Source: Candidatus Magasanikiibacteriota bacterium (GTDB taxonomy: Bacteria > Patescibacteriota > Patescibacteriia > Magasanikbacterales > GWA2-37-8). Taken from it: DNA of 64,000 nucleotides. Location of the stretch: the NCBI GenBank assembly GCA_046590235.1, contig JBKJTY010000035.1:14722-78721 (forward strand). The letters are read 5' to 3'. Positions 7,996 to 28,666 of the stretch are shown in pieces. The translations under genes were made by a program, and so were the position numbers. Position 1 is the stretch's first letter. Each line of letters starts with the position of its first letter. The notes beneath the pieces are model-generated. The model ran no database searches, was not told the origin of the DNA, and worked only from the letters and a program-made list of their open reading frames with translations.

Positions 7996-9255
7996 ATGCC
8001 TCAAGTTAAACCAGAAATTGAAGCGTTCGCAAAAATTAAAGTTGTTGGTGTTGGCGGATCTGGCGGATCAGCAGTTAACCGTATGATGGCGAGTAAAATT
8101 CGCGGTGTTGATTTTATTGTAATGAACACTGATATCCAAGCTTTGCACCACAATAACGCTCCGACTAAAATCCATATTGGTAAAACTGTTACACGTGGTT
8201 TAGGTGCAGGTATGGATCCTGAAATCGGACGCAAAGCTGCTGAAGAATCACAAAATGAAATTCGTGAAGCGCTCAAAGATAGTGATATGGTTTTCATTAC
8301 CTGCGGTATGGGTGGTGGTACAGGCACTGGAGCAGCGCCAGTTGTCGCTCAGGTCGCCAAAGAACTTGGCGCACTCACCGTAGCAGTAGTAACCAAACCA
8401 TTCTCTTTTGAAGGCCCGCAGCGTTCTACGATTGGAAATAAAGGTTGGGAAGACTTAGCAAAAAATGTAGATACGATTATCACTATTCCAAACGATCGTA
8501 TTTTGCAAATAATTGATAAAAAAACAACACTACTCGACGCGTTCAAGATTGTCGATGATATTTTACGCCAAGGTGTGCAAGGTATTTCTGAGCTCATCAC
8601 TATTCCTGGTCTTATCAACGTAGACTTTGCCGATGTTCGAACTATTATGCGCGACACCGGTTCTGCGTTAATGGGTATTGGTACGGGCAGTGGTGAAAAT
8701 CGAGCTATCGAAGCAGCGAAGGCTGCGATTTCTAGTCCGCTCCTCGAGCTTTCTATCGATGGTGCGCATGGTATTTTATTTACTATCACTGGTGGTCCTG
8801 ATCTTACCATGAACGAAGTCAGTGAAGCTGCTAAAATTATTACTTCATCAGCTTCAACTGAAGCAAAAATTATTTTTGGTGCAATCATTGATGAAAGCAT
8901 GACAGGTAGTATGCGTATCAGTGTGGTAGCTACAGGTTTTGACGAACGTCGCCCAAGTTTAGTAAAAGATGATGAAAGTTCTTCAGGTCAAACATTATTT
9001 GCTGCTGGCAAATATATGCCAAGCACCTTCCTACGTAAAGCCCAGAAAGAAGAAGAGGAAGAAGAACGTCGTTTTAAAAACTACACACAAAAAACTTCTC
9101 CACAATCACAATCTCCAGCTCAGGTAATGCAGCAGCCTCCGATGATGTCGCAACCACAACCGCAACAACAGCAGCAACAAGAAAGAACCATGCCAAAAGT
9201 TGGCGATGATGAAATTGAGATCCCAGCTTTCATTCGAAGGAAAATGGGTATATAA
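7996..9255 (+). CDS. ftsZ: cell division GTPase FtsZ
   Basis: [17 protein letters not shown] and the tubulin signature [13 protein letters not shown]. The C-terminus has a Q/P-rich linker ([17 protein letters not shown]) followed by a conserved tail ([12 protein letters not shown]). Confidence 0.9.
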
Positions 9256-9264
9256 TACCTTTGT

Positions 9265-9720
9265 ATGCGTTGCCCTGTTTGTAATCATCCAGACGTAAGC
9301 GTAGTCGATACTCGCTCTGCCGAAGATGATTTGGCAGTTCGACGACGTCGCGAATGTGAAAAGTGCAGTTATCGATTTTCCACGATTGAAGAAATTGAAC
9401 TCTTAGATATTATTGTGGTTAAACAAAACGGTGAGCGTCAAAGCTACATGCGTGAAAAGATTGAAAATGGTATAAAGCGCTCACTAACCAAACGTCCTTA
9501 CACGCAAGATAAATTTCATCGTTTAATCCACGCGATTGAGCGTGACATCCAAAAGAAGCGCCGACGTGAAATTGCAAGTAAAGAACTTGGTGAGATGGTC
9601 ATGAAACATCTTAGCGCGTTTGATAAAGTTGCTTACATCCGTTTTTCGAGTGTGTACCGGGATTTCAAAGATGTAAAAACATTTGAAAAAGAATTAAAAA
9701 AGATTACAAAAAAAGTTTAG
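9265..9720 (+). CDS. nrdR: transcriptional repressor NrdR
   Basis: N-terminal Zn-ribbon MRCPVCNHPDVSVVDTRSAEDD ... CEKC followed by an ATP-cone; 151 aa. Confidence 0.85.
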   Translation: MRCPVCNHPDVSVVDTRSAEDDLAVRRRRECEKCSYRFSTIEEIELLDIIVVKQNGERQSYMREKIENGIKRSLTKRPYTQDKFHRLIHAIERDIQKKRRREIASKELGEMVMKHLSAFDKVAYIRFSSVYRDFKDVKTFEKELKKITKKV

Positions 9721-9728
9721 CCTAGCTT

Positions 9729-10163
9729 ATGTACAAACACGGGGCACAACCTGAACTGGAGTCAGAAAAAAAACTTCCGCTCAAAAAACAGGTTGCTAAG
9801 GAGGGTAGTATAGAGCAAACAACTGTGTCATCGCTTACCAAAGTCGATGAACTTTCGGCTATACGAGAATTGATGGAAAAGAATTTGAAATGGTCGCAAA
9901 TAATCTACGAACAAAATCGTAAAATTAATAATAAGTTATTGTGGGCAGCAATTGCAGGCTGGGTGCGTTTGGTTATCATTGCAGTTCCGCTCATCTTTGC
10001 TTTATTATATTTACCGCCGCTCATTAGAAACGTACAAGAGAGATATGTACAGATCTTTAGCGGATCAACAGAAGCGGGTAGAAGCCAGAGTATCAAAGAC
10101 CTTCTCAATTTGTTGCCGCTGAGCAATAGTCAGCGCGAACAAGTTAAAGCCATGATGAAGTAA
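9729..10163 (+). CDS. hypothetical membrane protein (1 TM)
   Basis: ORF with a single hydrophobic segment (AAIAGWVRLVIIAVPLIFALLYL); no recognisable motif. Confidence 0.35.
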   Translation: MYKHGAQPELESEKKLPLKKQVAKEGSIEQTTVSSLTKVDELSAIRELMEKNLKWSQIIYEQNRKINNKLLWAAIAGWVRLVIIAVPLIFALLYLPPLIRNVQERYVQIFSGSTEAGRSQSIKDLLNLLPLSNSQREQVKAMMK

Positions 10164-10166
10164 CCC

Positions 10167-11603
10167 ATGTTCAAGCATACCAAAATTGGTGCGACAATTG
10201 GTCCGTCATGTGAAAGCATGGCTACTTTAGAGCAAATGGTTAAAGCGGGCATGAATTTTGCTCGACTTAATTTTGCGCATGGCACCTACGAATCACACGC
10301 TGTACTCATTAAAAGTATTCGTGCAGTAGAGAAGAAAACAGGGGAGCCTATAGCTATTCTTCAAGATCTTCAAGGACCGCGTATTCGCATTGGTGCCCTT
10401 CCGGACGCTGGTGTTGATGTAAAAAAAGGGGAAGTGATTGCTTTTAATACCAAAAATACAAAATATAATGGGAAACACATTCCAGTCGATCATCGTGAAT
10501 TACATAAGTTTATCAAAAAAGGACATCGTATTTTAATTGATGACGGTCGTATTGAATGTGAGGTGACAAAGGTTGCGGGCACGGTCGTCACAGCAGAAGT
10601 AACTCAGGAAGGTGTTATCAAATCCCATAAAGGCATCAACCTTCCAGACAGTAAATTAAAGATTCCTGCTCTTAGTGATAAAGATAAATCTGATTTACAA
10701 TTCGGTGTTATTGCAGGGGTTGATATGATAGGTTTATCTTTTGTTAGTACGGCAAAAGATATTAAGGACGTCAGAAAATTAATTGCCAAGTTTTCCAAAG
10801 AAGAAAAGATTGATATCCAGCCAATCGCAATCATTGCCAAGATCGAACGCGTTGAAGCGGTTAAAAATATTAAATCAATTATTGCTGAAGCTGACGGTAT
10901 CATGGTTGCTCGTGGTGATTTAGGTTTAGAGCTTCCAACCGGCGAAGTACCAATTATTCAAAAAAGAATTATTGAAGAATGTAACCGCCAAGCAAAACCA
11001 GTAATGGTAGCGACGCAGCTCCTCAATTCCATGCAGACCAGCAAACGTCCAACCCGTGCTGAAGCGAGTGATGTTGCAAATGCGGTTATTGATCACGCTG
11101 ACGCATTACTTCTTACAAATGAAACAGCTAGCGGTGACTACCCGGTGTTAGCTGTCGCAACAATGTCCTCGATCATCTTTAGTACCGAAAGTTCTGTTTA
11201 TGATGATTTAGCACACGCACCACTCCATAAAAAAGGTCTTCCAATTGATGAGGCTATAGTTGATATGGTAAAACTTCTCACCGATGAAGTTAAGGCCCAT
11301 GTAATCCTCGGCGCAACCAAAACCGGCCTATCCGCTCGCCTCCTCAGTCACGTCCGCCCAGCACTGCCACTAGTAATCGCCACCGATCGTGAAATCATCT
11401 GGCGACAAATAAATATCTCCTGGGGTGTTAAACCAATCCTTTTAAGAGAGCTTCCGGTCAGTAGCGAGCGATTTCTCAAGCTAGCAGAAGACTACCTCCG
11501 CACCAACAAACAAATTAAAACCGGACAAAAACTCGTTGTCGTCCTCGGTGAACCAGTCGGCGAAGCAGGCAGAGTCAACATGGTAGAACTTATAACAGTC
11601 TAA
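10167..11603 (+). CDS. pyk: pyruvate kinase
   Basis: N-terminal TKIGATIGPSCESMATLEQMVKAGMNFARLNFAHG, 478 aa, PK barrel plus C-terminal domain. Confidence 0.85.
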   Translation: MFKHTKIGATIGPSCESMATLEQMVKAGMNFARLNFAHGTYESHAVLIKSIRAVEKKTGEPIAILQDLQGPRIRIGALPDAGVDVKKGEVIAFNTKNTKYNGKHIPVDHRELHKFIKKGHRILIDDGRIECEVTKVAGTVVTAEVTQEGVIKSHKGINLPDSKLKIPALSDKDKSDLQFGVIAGVDMIGLSFVSTAKDIKDVRKLIAKFSKEEKIDIQPIAIIAKIERVEAVKNIKSIIAEADGIMVARGDLGLELPTGEVPIIQKRIIEECNRQAKPVMVATQLLNSMQTSKRPTRAEASDVANAVIDHADALLLTNETASGDYPVLAVATMSSIIFSTESSVYDDLAHAPLHKKGLPIDEAIVDMVKLLTDEVKAHVILGATKTGLSARLLSHVRPALPLVIATDREIIWRQINISWGVKPILLRELPVSSERFLKLAEDYLRTNKQIKTGQKLVVVLGEPVGEAGRVNMVELITV

Positions 11604-13227: not shown

Positions 13228-13257
13228 TAAAAAAGTAGCTGGAAAGCTACTTTTTTA
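13228..13257. terminator. bidirectional terminator hairpin at the elp3 3' end
   Basis: aaaaaaGTAGCTggaaAGCTACtttttt overlaps the elp3 stop codon. Confidence 0.5.
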
Positions 13258-14902
13258 ATGTTTTAACCATATAAGTCTTCTCGAGTTTGTAGCCCCATTT
13301 GCGGTAATAACCACGAACGCCCACACCCGATATAACTGCCAGTTTATCAACTTTACTTTTCTTAACAATTTTTTCCGCCTGCAACACCAACTTTCTTCCT
13401 AAACCTTTATGCTGTGTAGATTCTTTCTGCTGCTTGCCGATACGCACTAGCTGGCCATAAGTATGAAGCTCGCGAATATACGCGCCATATGAGTTTAACT
13501 TTTTATTAGGATGGATAACTGGAACGGTAACTACACGCAAGCGACAGAAAGCAAACACTACTTGGCGCTTCTTATCTTCGTAGCTAATAAAATATTCAAT
13601 ACCACCACGAGTTTCGTATTCATCAATAAACAAAACCGGTTCGAGTTGTTTTGCTGTCCAACCGTCAGTATTCACGTGTCCGATTTCACGACAGCGCAAA
13701 CATTTGCACGTAGTACCATCTTTCTTCATTTCCATTTCAATTACTTGGCGAAGGTTGGTGACCTTGTTACCTTCTTCAATGTATTGGCCTGGAATATCAC
13801 GGATCAAGCGTGAGACACGGGAATAGCGAGGGAGGTGGCTTTTAAATGTTTTGATAATATCGATCAAGTCACGAGTTGGATATGCTTTGTATTTACCCTG
13901 CATAAACAAGTCGTACAATTCAGAACCCTTCACGACCGTGCAGGGGTAAATCTTAATCATATCTGGTTTAAATCCTGGATCAGTAAAAATACTTTCCATC
14001 ATCTCTAAGTCCATTTGCGGAGTAGCACCAGGTAATTGTGGCATCAAATGGAAGTCCACCTTATAGCCATAGTTACGGAGCAATTCAGTTGCTTCACGAG
14101 AACGCTCAGTTGTATGTCCGCGCTTGGTCAATGCTAAAACACGGTCGTCTGTATGCTGGATACCAAGTTCAAGGCGAGTACAGCCTTGTTCGCGCATCTG
14201 CCAAATAGTATGTTTGTTAATACAATCCGGGCGAGTTTCCAAGGTCAGGCCAATAATACGGTGTTTCGCACCTTCATTAAGTCTCTGTTGTTTATATAAT
14301 TCAGCTTTTAATTTTTCGAGCGAAGATGTTTCAGTCAGTTTAGTAAATTTCGGATTCTTTTTTCCGTAGGTATTGCACGCTTCAAATGATCGGAGGATAA
14401 ACCAATATTGGTAGGCGAGGGGATAGGAGTTCCAGGTACCGCCTTTAACAATGAATTCAATTTTATCAGTCGGATGTCCGTTATTTTCGAGCGCTTCAAT
14501 ACGACGGGCCATTTGCTCAAAGGGATCAAAATGTAACATGAGCGCGCGCATCGCGGCAGGCTCTTCAGACAAATAACTTTTCGGCATACGTTCGTCCAAT
14601 GGGCAATAGGTACATTCGCCAGGACATGGATATGGTTTAACTAAAGAAGTAACAATCGTAACACCAGATAATGTTCGGACGGCACGGCGCATTAACATTT
14701 TTTCAAGCGCCTTATTTTGAGTAATTCTTTTCTTCTTCAGCAAGGTATGGTAAACTCTCAAAAGTTCAGTTTTGGTCGGGAAACTCTTCTCACTTTTTAT
14801 ACCAGTCACCGTATCGCGTTTCAGGGTATTAAAAGCAGCCTCGTCTTTCGGGAGTTTAATAGCCGCAGCAAGAATAATTTTTTCAGCATTATGGTTAAGC
14901 AT
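13247..14902 (-). CDS. elp3: Elp3-family radical SAM/GNAT protein (tRNA U34 carboxymethyl-modification enzyme homolog)
   Basis: Radical-SAM cysteine cluster CPGECTYCP, a TIM-barrel radical-SAM region, and a C-terminal GNAT-like segment (QHKGLGRKLVLQAEKIV...). 551 aa. Confidence 0.7.
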   Translation of the reverse strand: MLNHNAEKIILAAAIKLPKDEAAFNTLKRDTVTGIKSEKSFPTKTELLRVYHTLLKKKRITQNKALEKMLMRRAVRTLSGVTIVTSLVKPYPCPGECTYCPLDERMPKSYLSEEPAAMRALMLHFDPFEQMARRIEALENNGHPTDKIEFIVKGGTWNSYPLAYQYWFILRSFEACNTYGKKNPKFTKLTETSSLEKLKAELYKQQRLNEGAKHRIIGLTLETRPDCINKHTIWQMREQGCTRLELGIQHTDDRVLALTKRGHTTERSREATELLRNYGYKVDFHLMPQLPGATPQMDLEMMESIFTDPGFKPDMIKIYPCTVVKGSELYDLFMQGKYKAYPTRDLIDIIKTFKSHLPRYSRVSRLIRDIPGQYIEEGNKVTNLRQVIEMEMKKDGTTCKCLRCREIGHVNTDGWTAKQLEPVLFIDEYETRGGIEYFISYEDKKRQVVFAFCRLRVVTVPVIHPNKKLNSYGAYIRELHTYGQLVRIGKQQKESTQHKGLGRKLVLQAEKIVKKSKVDKLAVISGVGVRGYYRKWGYKLEKTYMVKTLKK

Positions 14903-15598
14903 AAAGGCCTCGACATTATACAGAAAACACGGGATGACTACAACACGATTGCCGAGTCATTTTCCGATACCCGCCAACATGCGGGTGAACTGGTGCAGTT
15001 TAGACCATTTTTGGCTGAAGGTCAATACATCCTGGATTGGGGCTGTGGCAATGGCCGGCTATTGTACTTATTAAAAGATTTCGATATTCACTACTTCGGC
15101 GTTGACCAAAGCCAAGGACTTTTGAAGCAGGCTAAGAAAAACCCGCTTGTGGAGTTCCAAGATGCTAAGTTTTTTTGCACTGCGCACAAAGATAAAAAGT
15201 TTGATAACGATTACTTCGACCTCGTTTTCATGATCGCATCATTCCATCATTTACCTGATGAAAAAACTCGCCTCGCACAGCTCAAAAAGACTTTTAAAGA
15301 AATGAAGTCCGGCGCACGAATTATTATGGTTAATTGGAACCTAGAAAGCGACTGGGCTAAAGCAAAATTTAAAAAAGATTGGGAAAAAATTGATGAAAAT
15401 GATTTCTTAATCCCATGGAAAAGTAAGGATGGCGCAATCATCGTTCAGCGCTATTATCACCACTTTGAAAAACAAGAAATCGAAGATTTAGTAACAAAAA
15501 TCGGTTTCACTATTGAGAAACTGGCATTTGCTACAAATGGAGAGTGGAGTGATAAGAAAGCCGGTAAAAACCTCGTTTTAATCGCTAAAAAGCCCTAG
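14891..15598 (+). CDS. Trm9/ALKBH8-type class I SAM methyltransferase (putative tRNA cm5U methyl ester synthase)
   Basis: ESFSDTRQ (the Trm9 FSxTR motif), motif I LDWGCGNGRLL, FMIASFHHLPDEKTRL (compare IAVxHHxxxxERR), LIPW and QRYYHHFEKQEIEDL (compare ALKBH8 HRYYHVF). Its ATG at 14891 overlaps the divergent elp3 start (14900-14902) by 12 nt. Confidence 0.7.
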   Translation: MVKHKGLDIIQKTRDDYNTIAESFSDTRQHAGELVQFRPFLAEGQYILDWGCGNGRLLYLLKDFDIHYFGVDQSQGLLKQAKKNPLVEFQDAKFFCTAHKDKKFDNDYFDLVFMIASFHHLPDEKTRLAQLKKTFKEMKSGARIIMVNWNLESDWAKAKFKKDWEKIDENDFLIPWKSKDGAIIVQRYYHHFEKQEIEDLVTKIGFTIEKLAFATNGEWSDKKAGKNLVLIAKKP

Positions 15599-15624
15599 TA
15601 TAGCGACTGCTGTGGATAATTGCA

Positions 15625-15653
15625 TTGACCTTAGGCAAAAATAGGACTATACT
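15625..15653 (+). promoter_or_regulatory. promoter TTGACC-N17-TATACT driving the GC-rich cassette
   Basis: TTGACC at 15625-15630, a 17-nt spacer, TATACT at 15648-15653. Confidence 0.5.
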
Positions 15654-15667
15654 CGTTCAATAGTTAT

Positions 15668-15775
15668 ATGAATCATATTCAATCCTACAATTTGTGCGCA
15701 ATGAAGAAGTTGGTTATTACCACCTCTATTGTCGTGCGTTTTGATAGCCAGGGTGAATATGGTCTTCGTGCATAA
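15668..15775 (+). CDS. small ORF (35 aa) at the 5' end of the GC-rich cassette; possible leader peptide or small protein
   Basis: ATG 15668 ... TAA. The ORF is just downstream of the promoter; there is no homology evidence. Confidence 0.2.
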   Translation: MNHIQSYNLCAMKKLVITTSIVVRFDSQGEYGLRA

Positions 15776-15936
15776 ACAAGTGCATCAATCCATCCTTTCA
15801 CCCTGAACTACCAAGTTCGGGGCTTTTTTATGAGAGGGGTGTAACGTCGTTTGGAGCAGCCAGTTTTAAGAGAGATTGGCTGATCCAAAGGATCCAGTTC
15901 GCTATATCGGCGACTGTCACACGGCAGGAGTCTCAG

Positions 15937-16233
15937 ATGAACATCGATCGGCACATGGAAGGCATTCGCACTAGGAGCGACATCGAGAAGGAGCGCAAGC
16001 AGAAGGAGCGCGAGAAGCTCGAGGACAGCGTCAAGCTGTCGATGTGGATCGGGAACAACCAGAAGGCCAGGGGAGTTTTGCAGCTCCCGTCGGACATCAA
16101 CGTCCTTCCGGGCTGCGGCTGCGAGAAGAAGGACCAGATCGGCAAGAAGGGGTTCTCGATGACTCGCCTCAACGTGAGCCTGCCCTGGGAACACTACCGG
16201 TGCCCGAAGAAGGCTAAGAAGGGTAACGCCTAG
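15937..16233 (+). CDS. hypothetical basic protein (98 aa), GC-rich with foreign codon usage
   Basis: RBS AGGAG 7 nt upstream. Codons are strongly G/C-ending (GAG, AAG, CTC, GGC), unlike the flanking genes. Sequence is KERKQKEREKLED...HYRCPKKAKKG. Confidence 0.5.
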   Translation: MNIDRHMEGIRTRSDIEKERKQKEREKLEDSVKLSMWIGNNQKARGVLQLPSDINVLPGCGCEKKDQIGKKGFSMTRLNVSLPWEHYRCPKKAKKGNA

Positions 16234-16254
16234 TTTCCGAAGCTGCTGCCGTGC

Positions 16255-16310
16255 GGAGGGAGGCGGTCCATATATTTCGACGAACAGTCGAATACATGGC
16301 CGCCCCCTCC
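16255..16310 (+). other. long hairpin (15-bp stem with a nested inner hairpin) between the ORF and the ribozyme
   Basis: GGAGGGAGGCGGTCCAT ... ATGGCCGCCCCCTCC; the loop contains a TTCGAC/GTCGAA palindrome. Confidence 0.5.
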
Positions 16311-16312
16311 GA

Positions 16313-16383
16313 GCCTCTATTCTTTCCTTAGTAAGGAAACTGATGAGTCCCTGATAGTTATGAAGAGGACGAAAATAGAAGTG
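16313..16383 (+). ncRNA. hammerhead self-cleaving ribozyme, type III topology (predicted cleavage between 16322 and 16323)
   Basis: Helix III 5' strand CUCUAU (16315-16320), then UUC with cleavage predicted after it. Helix I is UUUCCUU-AGU-AAGGAAA (16323-16339). CUGAUGA is at 16340-16346. Helix II is GUCC-16 nt loop-GGAC, with G10.1-C11.1 conserved. GAAA is at 16371-16374. Helix III 3' strand is AUAGAAG. Confidence 0.6.
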
Positions 16384-16477
16384 TAATCATATAGATCAGT
16401 GAGTTGTTGTATGACGATTGACTGATCTACATGATTTTGCACTTTCACCGGCCACACGGCCGCATTGGAGGCAGCAC

Positions 16478-16657
16478 ATGTGTGAGGCAAAGGATGGTTC
16501 GTTTAGTGGCGTTTCCACACAGAGCGATCTTTCGCCTGAAGACCAGGCTGAACTCGCTAAGCTCGTTACGCCAACATCGGTCACACCGGTCAAGCCGCGC
16601 GAGCTCATCGATGCGCGCAAGCAGTGCTCGGAGCGCACGAAGCCGCCGATCTGGTAG
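16478..16657 (+). CDS. hypothetical small acidic protein (59 aa), GC-rich
   Basis: RBS GGAGG upstream of the ATG; same foreign codon usage as its neighbours. Confidence 0.4.
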   Translation: MCEAKDGSFSGVSTQSDLSPEDQAELAKLVTPTSVTPVKPRELIDARKQCSERTKPPIW

Positions 16658-16804
16658 TTCTTTTTTCCTCCCGGTCGGCCAGGTATGTGTACCTGGCCGA
16701 CCGCGGAGTTCAATCTGAACGATAAGCTATTTTTAAAAAATGGTTTACCGGTCCGATTGACCTACGACTACCATACCGGTGGTCTAAACAAAGGAGTAGT
16801 TCGC

Positions 16805-17194
16805 ATGAGCCGGCCGTTCAAGGTCTTTGGTGCGCTGAGCAGTGAAGGCCTCAAGTTTCTCGAGGAGTTCTTCGAGGGAGGAAAGGAGGAGTTCGAGCAG
16901 TCGCTGGCGTTGGTCCTCGACAAGGGCCATCTCAACCTGAAGAAGGGTGTGCGGATCGAGATCCAGATCCCGCTGATCGTCTTCACTTTGAAGGCGAGCG
17001 CGCAGACGAAGCTCGAGGGCATGTCGCTCGTGAGCGACTCGCTCGTCGAGGTCGCAAAGACCGAAAAGGGGAAGGAAAAGTTTTTCGTCTTCGAGCGCTT
17101 TAAGCTCGTTGAGAAGTACCCCGCCGCCAAGACGCCCCAGCTCGCGATCGTTCCGACCGAGGCGGAAGCTGGCGTCGCCGAAACGGCCGCCTAA
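16805..17194 (+). CDS. hypothetical protein (129 aa), GC-rich
   Basis: RBS AAGGAG upstream; G/C-ending codons; no recognisable motif. Confidence 0.5.
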   Translation: MSRPFKVFGALSSEGLKFLEEFFEGGKEEFEQSLALVLDKGHLNLKKGVRIEIQIPLIVFTLKASAQTKLEGMSLVSDSLVEVAKTEKGKEKFFVFERFKLVEKYPAAKTPQLAIVPTEAEAGVAETAA

Positions 17195-17213
17195 CGGTGG
17201 TCACAACACAATA

Positions 17214-17247
17214 GGGGATGGTAGCAGCTACGCTGGCTACCATCCCC
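17214..17247 (+). terminator. strong hairpin terminator closing the GC-rich cassette
   Basis: GGGGATGGTAGC-agctacgctg-GCTACCATCCCC, a 12-bp stem. Confidence 0.55.
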
Positions 17248-17315
17248 GAACCTTATTCTTATTTTGTTAACGTCCATCACGGCCGTTTTTTTATTTTTTA
17301 TGGTATAATAAAGCC

Positions 17316-19276: not shown

Positions 19277-19350
19277 GCGCACTTAGCTCAGTTGGTTAGA
19301 GCATCTCGTTTACACCGAGAGGGTCGAGGGTTCGAATCCCCCAGTGCGCA
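19277..19350 (+). tRNA. tRNA-Val (anticodon TAC)
   Basis: Acceptor stem GCGCACT/AGTGCGC, D-arm GCTC..GAGC, anticodon stem TCTCG/CGAGA with loop TTTACAC, T-loop TTCGAAT. No CCA is encoded. There is one A-C mismatch in the T-stem. Confidence 0.8.
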
Positions 19351-19356
19351 CGTATG

Positions 19357-24752: not shown

Positions 24753-26912
24753 GTGGTCATGACTCGATCCATGCTTTCCAGTCTATTTTCTCCGAAATCA
24801 ATCGCGATTGTCGGAGCATCCCGCGATAAGACCAAAATTGGTCATATTGTTTTGCGTAACATAAAAGATGGGGGATATGAAGGGAAAATTTTTCCGGTTA
24901 ATCCTTCCGCAAAGAAAATAGATGGACTCGAAGCATTTCCAAATTACGAAGCACTTCCGAAAGTTCCTGATCTTGCCATCATTGCACTACCAGCCGCACT
25001 TGTACTTGAATCTGTCACCGCAATCGGAAAAAAGGGAACAAAAAATATTATCATTTTCAGCGCCGGTTTTAAAGAAATGGGTGGGGAAGGCGCAAAACTG
25101 GAAGAACAACTGCTCGCGCTCGCGAACAAATATAAATTAACAATTGTTGGTCCGAATTGCTTAGGTTTAGTAAGTCCGGAAGCACATTTAAACGCAACAT
25201 TTGGAAAGGTAGATCTTAAACCAGGCAATGTTCGCTTCATCTCTCAGTCCGGCGCCATTGCGACCAGTATTTTTGATTGGGCAGAATCCGCACAGATTGG
25301 TTTAGGAGAATTTATTACACTTGGTAACAAAACTGTAGTTGGCGAAGATGCCGTTTTACGCCACTGGAACGAACAAACAATCAAACCAATAACTAGAAAG
25401 AAACAGCAAAATGAAGGATTGTCTGGTTACCAGCCTGTTGGATTATATTTAGAATCCATTGTCCACGGCCGAGAATTTTTACGTTATGCTAAAGAAATTT
25501 CTAAACACGATCCAGTTTTTCTTTTAAAACCTGGAAAATCTGCTGGCGCGCAAAAAGCCATGATGTCTCACACTGGATCATTGGCGGGCAACGATGCAGT
25601 GCTCAACGCTGCACTCAAGGATGCGGGTATTATGCGTTGTGATGGTATCGAGGATGTCTTTGACTTAACCCGTGCATTTGCTTGGGAAAATGCACCAGAA
25701 GGTCCAAACGTAGCCGTCGTATCAAATGCTGGAGGTCCAGCCGTTATGAGTGCCGATCTTCTCGTTGAAGCAGGGCTTACCCTTGCTCCGTTAAGTGAAA
25801 AAACACATCAAGCACTTCAAAAACATCTTCCACGTGCCGCTGGAATCATGAATCCAGTTGATGTTCTCGGTGACGCCTTAGCAGATCGATACGCCATCGC
25901 CCTTGAAGCAGTGCTTACAGATAAAGCAGTTGATGCGTTGGTGGTTATTTTAACACCGCAAATGATGACGCAGGTTGCTGAAACAGCGAAAGTTATTGCG
26001 ACACTTGGAAAAAAGCATCATAAACCAATTGTTTGTTCATTCATGGGTGGTCGCACTATTATTAGCGGTGAAGTTATTTTGAATAAATATAAATTACCAT
26101 CATTCCGTTATCCAGAACGAGCTATTAAAGCGCTTGGCAAAATGTGGTGGTGGCAATCATGGAGAACAAAACAGCAAAAAACAATGGATAAGCCAAAACC
26201 GGTCATTGGTAGTGCAAAAATTGAAAGTGAATTGCAGGCTCGACAGAAAAAAGGCCAAACTGCATTAACTCCAATCGAAGCAAACAATCTTTTAGAAAAA
26301 ATTGGTTTGCGTATCCCACCATCTTTCAGTTGTAGTAAAAAAATAGATGCAGAAAATTTCTTTAAACAGCAAGGTGCTATTGTTTTAAAACTTGCTTCTG
26401 AACGCGTGCTTCACAAAAGTGATGCCGGCGGTATTATTACTAATATCCGCACGGTAGATGAATTGTCGAAAGCTTGGGATGTGCTTGAAAAAAAAGTTAC
26501 TGATTTGAAATCAGCAGGGGACATCAGTGCGACTATTCAAGCGCAAAAACAACTAACGGGCGGCTTAGAAATCATCGTTGGTATCACTACTGATGCGACA
26601 TTTGGTCGTGTGCTTATGTTTGGTGCTGGTGGTGTATTGGTTGAGCTTGTTAAAGATCGCAATTTGCACTTACTACCTCTCAGCAGAACGGCTATCGAAG
26701 AATTAGTCAGTTCATCACTCATTTTCCCAATGCTCAAAGGTTACCGCGGTGAACAATCGTTTGCCTTGGAAAAATTGTATGATCTCATTGAGCGACTCAT
26801 CAACGCTATTAACGAAATGCCATCCATTGCTGATGTAGAAATAAATCCGATTATCATTACTCATGAAGACGCTTGGGCAGTAGATGGAAGAATCATTTTA
26901 CACACCGTATGA
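24753..26912 (+). CDS. acd: ADP-forming acetyl-CoA synthetase (fused alpha/beta; acetate--CoA ligase [ADP-forming])
   Basis: N-terminal CoA-binding domain SIAIVGASRDKTKIGHIV, a succinyl-CoA-synthetase-like flavodoxin domain, and a C-terminal ATP-grasp. 719 aa. Confidence 0.75.
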   Translation: MVMTRSMLSSLFSPKSIAIVGASRDKTKIGHIVLRNIKDGGYEGKIFPVNPSAKKIDGLEAFPNYEALPKVPDLAIIALPAALVLESVTAIGKKGTKNIIIFSAGFKEMGGEGAKLEEQLLALANKYKLTIVGPNCLGLVSPEAHLNATFGKVDLKPGNVRFISQSGAIATSIFDWAESAQIGLGEFITLGNKTVVGEDAVLRHWNEQTIKPITRKKQQNEGLSGYQPVGLYLESIVHGREFLRYAKEISKHDPVFLLKPGKSAGAQKAMMSHTGSLAGNDAVLNAALKDAGIMRCDGIEDVFDLTRAFAWENAPEGPNVAVVSNAGGPAVMSADLLVEAGLTLAPLSEKTHQALQKHLPRAAGIMNPVDVLGDALADRYAIALEAVLTDKAVDALVVILTPQMMTQVAETAKVIATLGKKHHKPIVCSFMGGRTIISGEVILNKYKLPSFRYPERAIKALGKMWWWQSWRTKQQKTMDKPKPVIGSAKIESELQARQKKGQTALTPIEANNLLEKIGLRIPPSFSCSKKIDAENFFKQQGAIVLKLASERVLHKSDAGGIITNIRTVDELSKAWDVLEKKVTDLKSAGDISATIQAQKQLTGGLEIIVGITTDATFGRVLMFGAGGVLVELVKDRNLHLLPLSRTAIEELVSSSLIFPMLKGYRGEQSFALEKLYDLIERLINAINEMPSIADVEINPIIITHEDAWAVDGRIILHTV

Positions 26913-28666
26913 AATCATCGTTTGTCATAACTATCGGCGGGGAAGCAGGCTTTGGTATTATGTCAGCCGGTTTAACGCTTGCAAAAATTGCCACCCGCTC
27001 AGGTTTTAGTTCATTTGGCTACGCAGAATATCCTTCAATTGTTCGTGGAGGATACAACGTCATGCATATTGCTGTTGGGGCTGAAGTTCGCGCGCCAAAA
27101 AAGTCTGTCGACTTTCTCATTGCCTTAAATCAAGAATCAATTAAACAAAACGCAGCAATTTTAGAACATGATGCCTGTGTTATTTTTGACGCTGACCAAA
27201 AAATTACTACGACGACACTAGCTCCGAGTATTGAAAAAATTCCAGTTCCATTTAACCGTTTTGCTAAAGAAATTGGTGGAAGTATTTTGATGCGCAACAC
27301 CGTCGCGCTCGGGGCGTTAGTAGCGCTTGCAGGTGGAGACTTAGAAATTCTCAAAGAATTAATTGATGAAGAATTTGCAACCAAGAAAAAAGATGTTGCT
27401 GTCCGTAATAAAAAATGTGCCGAAGCTGGTTATAATTATGTCAAAAAAGAATTTGCTTCGTTGATAAGAACTGATCTAAAACCTTTCAGTAAAAAAACAG
27501 AACGCTTGGTCATGACTGGTAATGACGCCATTGCACTCGGAGCAATTGCTGCCGGTATGCAATTTGCGGCGATTTATCCAATGACCCCAACATCAAACAT
27601 TCTCCATATTCTTGCTCCACACCAAGAAGAATTTGGGTATATTTACAAACAACCAGAAGATGAAATTTCTGCATTAACTATGGCCATTGGTGCATCGTTT
27701 GCTGGTGCTCGTTCAATGGTGGCGACAGCCGGTGGGGGCTTTTGTCTCATGACTGAAGGCTACGGACTGGCTGCTATGACCGAAACACCTGTTGTGATCG
27801 TCGTAGGGATGCGCGGTGGGCCGGCAACCGGCCTTCCCACATGGACTGAACAAGGTGATCTACAATTCATACTGCACGCGCATCAAGGCGAATTTCCACG
27901 CATCGTGCTCGCTGCTGGAGATCTTGAGGAAGCCTTTTCGCTTACCATGGATTCTTTTAATCTGGCAGAAAAATATCAAACACCGGTTATTGTACTTGTT
28001 GATAAACATCTCTGTGAGAGTTTTGCCTCAACCAAACCATTTGCGTATGGTAAATACAGTATTGAACGCGGAAAAACGTTGCTCAAATACCAAGAAAATT
28101 ATCCACGTTACGCCTTTGCTGATGATGGAATTTCACCGCGCGCTTTTCCAGGCAGCGGTAATCACATCTTGGCAAACTCCGATGAACACAATGAACGAGG
28201 GTTTACTGATGAAAGCAGTAAAAACCGTATTCATATGATGGATAAACGCATGAAAAAATTGGAAACGTGCGCTAGAGTAGAAATGCCTGAACCAATAATG
28301 TATGGGCCTAAAAATGCTGATTTAACAATTGTTTCCTGGGGAAGTAATAAGGGTGTCATTCTCGACGCAATACAAAAGTACGACAATGTAAATTATCTCC
28401 ATATCACTTGGATGAACCCGTTTCCAACAGCCTTTGTAAAAAAGATTTTGGCAGGAAGTGAGCGCATCATGATTATGGAATGTAATTACAACGGACAGCT
28501 CGACCAACTTATCCAAGAAAAAACCGGCGTAATCATTAAAGAAAAATGGTTCAAATACGACGGCCGCCCATTCTTTGTTGAAGAAGTTATAGAAAAAGTA
28601 AATTCTCTTTTAGCACAACCGTATGGCATTGCCATTCCAAAACAAACTAGAAATAAAGTCGCCTAG
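26909..28666 (+). CDS. 2-oxoacid:ferredoxin oxidoreductase subunit alpha (fused gamma-alpha)
   Basis: POR-gamma-like N-terminus (ITIGGEAGFGIMSAGLTLAKIA) followed by alpha domains. The ATG overlaps the acd stop as ATGA. Confidence 0.75.
   Translation: MKSSFVITIGGEAGFGIMSAGLTLAKIATRSGFSSFGYAEYPSIVRGGYNVMHIAVGAEVRAPKKSVDFLIALNQESIKQNAAILEHDACVIFDADQKITTTTLAPSIEKIPVPFNRFAKEIGGSILMRNTVALGALVALAGGDLEILKELIDEEFATKKKDVAVRNKKCAEAGYNYVKKEFASLIRTDLKPFSKKTERLVMTGNDAIALGAIAAGMQFAAIYPMTPTSNILHILAPHQEEFGYIYKQPEDEISALTMAIGASFAGARSMVATAGGGFCLMTEGYGLAAMTETPVVIVVGMRGGPATGLPTWTEQGDLQFILHAHQGEFPRIVLAAGDLEEAFSLTMDSFNLAEKYQTPVIVLVDKHLCESFASTKPFAYGKYSIERGKTLLKYQENYPRYAFADDGISPRAFPGSGNHILANSDEHNERGFTDESSKNRIHMMDKRMKKLETCARVEMPEPIMYGPKNADLTIVSWGSNKGVILDAIQKYDNVNYLHITWMNPFPTAFVKKILAGSERIMIMECNYNGQLDQLIQEKTGVIIKEKWFKYDGRPFFVEEVIEKVNSLLAQPYGIAIPKQTRNKVA

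Follow-up and report, generated by a model that had tools for sequence, protein, structure and literature searches.

A divergent Elp3 and Trm9-type gene pair as a predicted module for wobble-uridine modification in Patescibacteria

The two genes and their products

Here, we describe a pair of head-to-head genes in DNA from a Candidatus Magasanikiibacteriota bacterium (GenBank assembly GCA_046590235.1, contig JBKJTY010000035.1, positions 14,722 to 78,721), a stretch of 64,000 nucleotides that is referred to as the window and supplies the coordinates used throughout, and consider their likely role in the modification of wobble uridines in tRNA. On the minus strand, 13247-14902 encodes Elp3, a protein of 551 amino acids with a radical-SAM (S-adenosylmethionine) domain, a GNAT/KAT domain and an extended basic N-terminus, and on the plus strand 14891-15598 encodes a Trm9-type SAM-dependent methyltransferase of 235 amino acids, which comprises the methyltransferase domain alone. 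The plus-strand gene starts with the ATG at 14891-14893, and the CAT at 14900-14902, read on the opposite strand, supplies the start of the minus-strand gene, such that the divergent genes overlap by 12 nt on both strands (14891-14902) with zero intergenic DNA between them. Both open reading frames (ORFs) and their overlap had been reported in an initial annotation made from the sequence alone, and both are present as described. The closest named relative, a Magasanikbacteria metagenome-assembled genome (MAG; locus L003), has the identical 12-nt overlap.

The minus-strand ORF contains no alternative start in its first 68 codons, and its homologues align from residue 6-7. For the methyltransferase, the program that listed the ORFs had placed the start at a TTG at 14717; this candidate was rejected, as the 22 aligned homologues all begin 0-6 residues from ATG 14891 (22/22), which alignment thereby indicates to be the true start.

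The minus-strand product is a full-length Elp3, as previously proposed from the sequence, and is predicted to catalyse the formation of 5-carboxymethyluridine at wobble position 34 (cm5U34). It scores 534.9 bits with the NCBIfam ELP3 model TIGR01211, for which the cutoff is 350, and its residues 26-549 cover positions 11-522 of the 522 in the model; it also has Pfam matches to Radical_SAM and Radical_SAM_C, with GNAT falling sub-threshold (18.4 against 20.7 bits). Matches to Elp3 structures in the PDB reach E-values of the order of 1e-118, the nearest relative being MinElp3 of Methanocaldococcus infernus (6ia8; E 4e-118, 398 bits) and the second DmcElp3 of Dehalococcoides mccartyi (5l7j; E 7e-111, 375 bits); the yeast, mouse and human proteins score about 305-310 bits in the same search. 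The iron-sulphur cluster cysteines of the CPGECTYC motif align with CPHGKCIFC of MinElp3, and the full-length alignment of the two proteins also retains the zinc-binding triad CxCxxC (CKCLRC), which is typical for bacterial and archaeal Elp3 (PMC6367351). In the C-terminal region, the acetyl-CoA motif QxxGxG (QHKGLGRKL) aligns with QHMGYGRML of MinElp3, which identifies the GNAT/KAT domain. The N-terminus contains 17 lysine or arginine residues among the first 75, and tRNA binding has been tied to the basic N-terminal region of Elp3 (PMC6367351, PMC7663514). A separate peculiarity of this protein family is seen in locus L076, where Elp3 is extended to 625 amino acids by two in-frame insertions whose peptides are nearly identical (IPAQAGIQ/Y...SRLRGNDKVG), a pattern reminiscent of a short repeat element inserted twice.

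The plus-strand product is a class I SAM methyltransferase by its Pfam matches (Methyltransf_25 and Methyltransf_11). All five methyltransferase motifs previously quoted for it are present in the translation, and its AlphaFold2 model (predicted local distance difference test score 92) has a Rossmann-type fold. The top sequence match in the PDB is 5cm2_Z, the Yarrowia Trm9 of the Trm9-Trm112 complex (E 1.1e-10), which is also the sole match in this single-sequence search to extend over the C-terminal half of the protein. When the search was made with a profile built from 23 members of the family, Trm9 was found with an E-value of 9.7e-23 (84 bits), the runner-up being 3sm3 (67 bits), an uncharacterised archaeal methyltransferase without the Trm9 residues defined by mutagenesis. 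In the reverse direction, Yarrowia Trm9 searched against the window finds this ORF as its only match (E 4e-14; next 0.025). Fold searches did not single out Trm9.

The most specific evidence comes from the active site. In yeast Trm9, formation of 5-methoxycarbonylmethyluridine (mcm5U) needs R29, D72, H116, W145, W168, R241, Y243 and N271, and Y18 lies near the carboxylate of cm5U (PMC4678810). Residues Y18, R29, D72, H116, W145, W168, R241 and Y243 of the yeast enzyme correspond to Y17, R28, D72, H120, W149, W176, R187 and Y189 here, all of which are invariant in our alignment of the family (A1) from the candidate phyla radiation (CPR, or Patescibacteria), as is the SAM-binding motif LDWGCGNG. 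The counterpart of N271 would be N227, which is kept in 90% or more of the aligned sequences, a correspondence assigned by the motif near the C-terminus, N-[LW]-x-[LV]-[IV]-A-K and not by the HMMER alignment. The best-supported identification is of a Trm9-type enzyme that keeps every mutagenesis-defined mcm5U residue of Trm9 and whose product is predicted accordingly from these residues. The initial annotation had called the protein Trm9/ALKBH8-like; the Trm9 half of that description holds, Trm9 being the best solved sequence relative, and the ALKBH8 half does not, as this 235-residue protein carries neither an AlkB nor an RRM domain. Automated annotation already names some of the CPR homologues TRM9.

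Conservation of the pair and the spacing of its starts

The conservation of the pair was examined from both genes in turn. A methyltransferase-centred sample was drawn by an alignment scan of one genome per species, which gave 139 relatives, of which the best 80 loci were kept; three were uninformative, the methyltransferase lying less than 200 nt from a contig end. In each of the remaining 77 (77/77), a tblastn search with the window Elp3 placed an elp3 gene directly upstream and divergent. The sample of 80 spans Magasanik-, Komeili- and Peribacteria, Parcubacteria and Paceibacterota, with methyltransferase identities as low as 31%. For the Elp3-centred sample, metagenome contigs were scanned with a query alignment headed by Elp3 of the Parcubacteria type. 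Here, 60 of the 74 informative loci have the methyltransferase gene adjacent and divergent and a further 4 have it nearby in another arrangement, with no methyltransferase within 6 kb in the other 10. Across both samples the methyltransferase was never met without Elp3, and Elp3 was at times met without the methyltransferase, an asymmetry that would be expected if the methyltransferase consumes the product of Elp3. At the genomic level, a dependence of Trm9 on Elp3 is reflected in 77/77 methyltransferase loci and 64/74 Elp3 loci.

The surroundings of the pair are far less constant. A wider synteny, ftsA-ftsZ-nrdR-pyk-glyA on one side and eamA on the other, is found in only about 40-50 of the first 80 loci, and among 140 pair-bearing loci the flanks comprise 58 and 48 gene families in 94 combinations. 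As the flanking genes vary to this extent, the adjacency of the pair is kept independently of its surroundings and thus by selection. The surveyed loci show no further modification gene conserved alongside the two. The titles under which such loci are deposited are likely to be wrong in some cases: many MAG records carrying this CPR-type locus (L001, L002, L004 and around 35 more) are named 'uncultured Gammaproteobacteria bacterium', and that of L015 reads 'Candidatus Udaeobacter sp.'.

The close spacing of the two start codons is itself widespread. Measured from start to start in the 77 loci, the genes overlap in 14 (8 as CATG, the others by 6-12 nt), are separated by 0-50 nt in 47, of which 16 abut exactly (CAT|ATG), by 51-200 nt in 13 and by more than 200 nt in 3, such that the starts overlap or lie at most 50 nt apart in 61/77. 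With no spacer between the starts, the promoters and any ribosome-binding signals must sit inside the coding sequence of the partner gene. The shared regulatory region anticipated in the initial annotation is therefore real, and goes beyond what was envisaged there in that a spacer is usually absent.

A candidate for such an embedded element is a putative -10 hexamer for Elp3, TATAAT at 14915-14920 on the minus strand, which coincides with codons 9-10 of the methyltransferase gene (ATT ATA), 12 nt ahead of the start codon of Elp3. The codon for Ile10 of the methyltransferase is ATA in 51 of 62 sequences (0.82); at 42 conserved isoleucine columns of both genes the median use of ATA is 0.10 and the next highest value after Ile10 is 0.42. 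Ile9 is encoded by ATT in 52/59 sequences, and Ile20 of the same sequences shows no codon bias. In 43/78 loci, the 60 nt ahead of the Elp3 ATG contain a perfect TATAAT, against an expectation of 0.027 per locus. From this codon usage we infer that the Elp3 promoter may be embedded in the first codons of the methyltransferase gene. For the opposite direction there is a weaker candidate -10 hexamer, AATAAT at 14873-14878 on the plus strand, which falls on Ile-Ile codons of Elp3 and lies 12 nt before ATG 14891; in many loci a (G/A/T)ATAAT-TTTTTC motif is found 13-25 nt upstream of the methyltransferase ATG. When loci are divided by spacer, ATT-ATA is present in 39/59 tight and 7/18 wide loci, a difference in the expected direction and not a decisive one. 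A scan for sigma-70 patterns returned no more sites than shuffled sequence.

Only 3 of the 39 genes in the window are preceded by Shine-Dalgarno-like motifs, and perfect TATAAT boxes lie 8 nt before the start of nrdR and 6 nt before that of eamA, which suggests that leaderless mRNAs, or mRNAs with very short leaders, may be common in this organism. Such boxes stand 6-12 nt ahead of some of its starts, for example at 9265, 14902 and 17316 (nrdR, Elp3; TGGTATAAT before eamA).

The predicted pathway and its alternatives

We consider it probable, at roughly 0.7, that the locus is a two-gene module for wobble-uridine modification of the archaeal and eukaryotic type, with mcm5U as its product and with coupled, embedded promoters, in Patescibacteria. 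In the proposed pathway, Elp3 alone, as in archaea, would use SAM radical chemistry and acetyl-CoA to place a carboxymethyl group on C5 of U34, giving cm5U, which the Trm9-type methyltransferase would then convert to mcm5U by methyl-esterification with a second use of SAM; MnmA could additionally thiolate the base to mcm5s2U. Each gene would be transcribed from a promoter within the first ~10 codons of its partner, yielding very short leaders that lack a Shine-Dalgarno sequence, an arrangement that would physically couple the expression of both steps. The substrate and product are inferred, as are the independence from Trm112, the promoter role of TATAAT and any replacement of MnmE/MnmG discussed below.

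The co-substrate of the first step appears to be at hand. The window encodes pyruvate kinase (10167-11603), an ADP-forming acetyl-CoA synthetase (24753-26912) and a pyruvate:ferredoxin oxidoreductase (26873-28666), and because of these three enzymes acetyl-CoA, and possibly reduced ferredoxin, should be available; a route from pyruvate through acetyl-CoA to acetate would thus be predicted to supply Elp3. In the metagenome locus L130, an mnmA homologue with 40% identity to E. coli MnmA lies at 8712-9743 on the minus strand, 1.1 kb downstream of Elp3 and with a Trm9-like gene 5.5 kb away, an arrangement that is compatible with 2-thiolation.

The closest known parallel is the archaeal pathway of Elp3 and Trm9(-Trm112), represented by Methanocaldococcus, Haloferax volcanii and Sulfolobus solfataricus. 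In archaea, as here, Elp3 is present without Elp1, Elp2 and Elp4-6 and has a basic extended N-terminus together with the zinc-cysteine triad (PMC6367351), Trm9 consists of the methyltransferase domain only and the genes cluster (PMC2584109, PMC6144793); the clustering of Elp3 and Trm9 genes was described for S. solfataricus in 2008 (PMC2584109), and in 2018 the H. volcanii Trm9-Trm112 was shown to convert cm5U to mcm5U (PMC6144793). The CPR pair differs in residing in a bacterial host, in its strictly head-to-head orientation with abutting or overlapping starts and in having no Trm112 gene found nearby. With the eukaryotic system, in which Elongator (Elp1-6) acts before Trm9/ALKBH8-Trm112, the pair shares its catalytic domains, the active-site residues of Trm9 (PMC4678810) and the predicted sequence of U34 to cm5U to mcm5U, but lacks both the accessory Elongator subunits and the AlkB/RRM domains of ALKBH8, and its Elp3 is more distant from the eukaryotic proteins (about 305-310 bits) than from archaeal Elp3 (398 bits).

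Among bacteria, DmcElp3 is likewise a stand-alone enzyme of the same two-domain fold family (375 bits); unlike the protein described here it has a short N-terminus (PMC7663514), the alignment beginning only at residue 71 of the window Elp3, and the cited papers mention no Trm9 partner for it. The bacterial MnmE/MnmG (+MnmC) system also targets C5 of wobble U34, presumably with an equal decoding purpose, but does so with unrelated enzymes, a GTPase and a flavoprotein that use methylene-tetrahydrofolate and glycine, and yields 5-carboxymethylaminomethyluridine (cmnm5U) or 5-methylaminomethyluridine (mnm5U).

It had been suggested that such a bacterial Elp3-Trm9 pair was undescribed. This stands for the CPR, as our literature search found no paper that joins Elp3 or Trm9 with CPR or Patescibacteria (the single co-mention is unrelated) and nothing that combines Patescibacteria with mnmG. 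It does not stand for the components, the pairing being known from archaea (PMC2584109) and Elp3 being known from bacteria (PMC6367351). According to a 2020 review, Dehalococcoides was the one clade of bacteria to have Elp3 (PMC7663514), and "numerous bacteria" are mentioned in a 2026 paper (PMC13315578); in the literature searched, the phrase "bacterial Elp3" is used for Dehalococcoides only. The new elements are therefore the presence of the pair in bacteria (CPR) and its zero-spacer divergent architecture, not the pairing itself.

Several observations weigh against the proposed module. For the partner of Elp3, Pfam and NCBIfam returned only generic methyltransferase matches. No nucleoside of the cm5U type has been demonstrated in any bacterium, and the sole bacterial Elp3 to have been studied is very weakly active (PMC7663514). 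Known Trm9 enzymes require Trm112, and there is no Trm112-like gene or conserved small ORF near the pair in the fetched loci. On the regulatory side, the codon bias is the sole footing of the promoter proposal; codons Ile9 and Ile10 of Elp3, which make up the mirror element AATAAT, show no synonymous constraint, and among the Ile-Ile pairs of wide-spacer loci ATT-ATA is nearly as frequent (7/9).

With regard to Trm112, an E. coli YcaR query found no match in the 2.04 Mb of fetched loci. Of the six hydrophobic positions of Yarrowia Trm9 that contact Trm112, three or four (V59, F78, A110, P112; PMC4678810) have polar or varying residues in the CPR family, in a region that aligns poorly, and we take this as a low-confidence hint that the methyltransferase might act independently of Trm112. 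Searching the same loci and the window by tblastn with E. coli sequences gave no MnmG, a fragment of the MnmE G-domain only and a single MnmA, that of L130, a result that is uninformative on absence.

How far do other explanations account for these data? The methyltransferase may have another specificity, resembling METTL6, which forms 3-methylcytidine at position 32 (m3C32), or UbiE/UbiG, and neighbour Elp3 for reasons unrelated to the esterification of cm5U. We regard this as unlikely, given that METTL6 falls well below Trm9 in the family-profile search (E 6e-5 against 1e-22), that the equivalents of R29, R241 and Y243, which bind the cm5U carboxylate, and of the tryptophan and histidine residues are invariant (PMC4678810), that no quinone pathway which such an enzyme could serve is obvious in these CPR genomes and that Elp3 adjoins it in all 77 informative loci despite the varied flanks. 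We give a similarly low weighting to the possibility that Elp3 does make cm5U but that the end product is something other than mcm5U, such as 5-carbamoylmethyluridine (ncm5U) or a new ester or derivative, or that the pair serves only one or two tRNAs as a supplement to MnmE/MnmG. The diversion of cm5U elsewhere when Trm9 is missing in H. volcanii and yeast (PMC6144793) would fit such an outcome, as would the 10/74 Elp3 loci with no methyltransferase nearby, but the complete Trm9 active site favours the canonical ester, and no further modification gene is conserved with the pair.

The arrangement itself might be explained by inherited synteny or by genome compaction, with ATT-ATA arising from a translation ramp or mRNA structure and not from a promoter. 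CPR genomes are indeed compact, some 40-50 of the first 80 loci share the ftsZ-nrdR-pyk-glyA ... eamA neighbourhood and ATT-ATA is kept in wide-spacer loci. Nevertheless, the pair survives 94 combinations of flanking genes and is found in lineages in which the methyltransferase has fallen to 31% identity, and the use of ATA for Ile10 lies far outside that at the other isoleucine columns (0.82 compared with a median of 0.10 and a next value of 0.42) in a gene whose Ile20 is unbiased, such that we hold this explanation to be very improbable.

The two-gene mcm5U module can also be extended to a bolder and more speculative proposal, namely that in much of the CPR an archaeal-type Elp3 and a Trm112-independent Trm9 have replaced MnmE/MnmG and make mcm5(s2)U, and do so from a zero-spacer unit with reciprocal Ile-Ile -10 elements and near-leaderless mRNAs, in organisms that have largely abandoned the Shine-Dalgarno sequence. 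We put this forward tentatively and think it rather less likely to be right than wrong.

Surrounding features and wider implications

The pair is followed on either side by features of other kinds. On the Elp3 side, a palindromic hairpin flanked by A/T runs (13228-13257, no strand assigned) overlaps the Elp3 stop codon and matches a terminator-like pattern, and is likely to be a terminator between Elp3 and glyA. In L003, the Elp3 stop codon is immediately followed by a skipping-rope RNA motif (RF02924; 61.4 bits, gathering threshold 36.7) at 8198-8280 on the minus strand; the window contains no match to this family.

On the methyltransferase side, the 1.7 kb that separate the gene from eamA (15600-17300) have a G+C content of about 0.50 compared with 0.42, and contain a promoter-like site (15625-15653), plus-strand ORFs at 15937-16233, 16478-16657 and 16805-17194, each followed by a hairpin, and a candidate type III hammerhead ribozyme at 16315-16380 on the plus strand (Rfam RF00008, 43.3 bits against a gathering threshold of 48.5, E 1e-7). 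No Pfam or PHROG family is significantly matched by the ORFs, and a blastn search of phages returned nothing; the segment may be a small cassette, either mobile or accessory. The hammerhead is found again on the downstream side of the methyltransferase gene in six or more related genomes, with copies at 12110-12175 in L001, 12857-12923 in L022, 15710-15768 in L040, 10256-10320 in L048 and 13110-13174 in L069, and its core CUGAUGA...GAAA is invariant, with compensatory changes at 11 of the 18 predicted pairs. In L022 and L040 it lies 45-60 nt before eamA, and in L001 and L069 it is preceded by proteins resembling that of the first ORF, with a ...LP...CGC... motif.

Further downstream, a tRNA-Val(UAC), a tRNA with U34, is encoded at 19277-19351 on the plus strand and has the same relative position in about 30 of L001-L060. 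Its distance downstream from the pair is 3-8 kb, and the synteny is shared by many Magasanikbacteria-like genomes. In yeast, tRNA-Val(UAC) is a substrate of Elongator; its placement here is probably plain synteny. The long run of plus-strand genes at 39249-62654, of low G+C content (0.34-0.40), encodes a Wzy-type O-antigen ligase, a DegT aminotransferase, an ABC transporter and glycosyltransferases and looks like a surface polysaccharide cluster, upstream of which lie large surface proteins with Laminin_G/TSP3 and BNR/PG-binding domains.

Wobble modifications of the mcm5U type have been viewed as eukaryotic and, since 2018, also as archaeal, with bacterial Elp3 regarded as a curiosity of one clade (PMC7663514). 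As judged from the genes described here, a large branch of the bacteria probably relies on a type of wobble chemistry that has yet to be demonstrated in that domain. If true, a very large and mostly uncultured share of bacterial diversity would decode with the 'other' wobble chemistry, which in these organisms of minimal metabolism would be tied directly to the supply of acetyl-CoA and SAM. The pair would also offer biochemistry small, stand-alone and possibly Trm112-independent forms of both enzymes, and two such short genes bring the question of bacterial mcm5U within reach of a direct test. Should it be confirmed that the overlapping divergent genes carry each other's promoters, this would represent a compact regulatory design of general interest.

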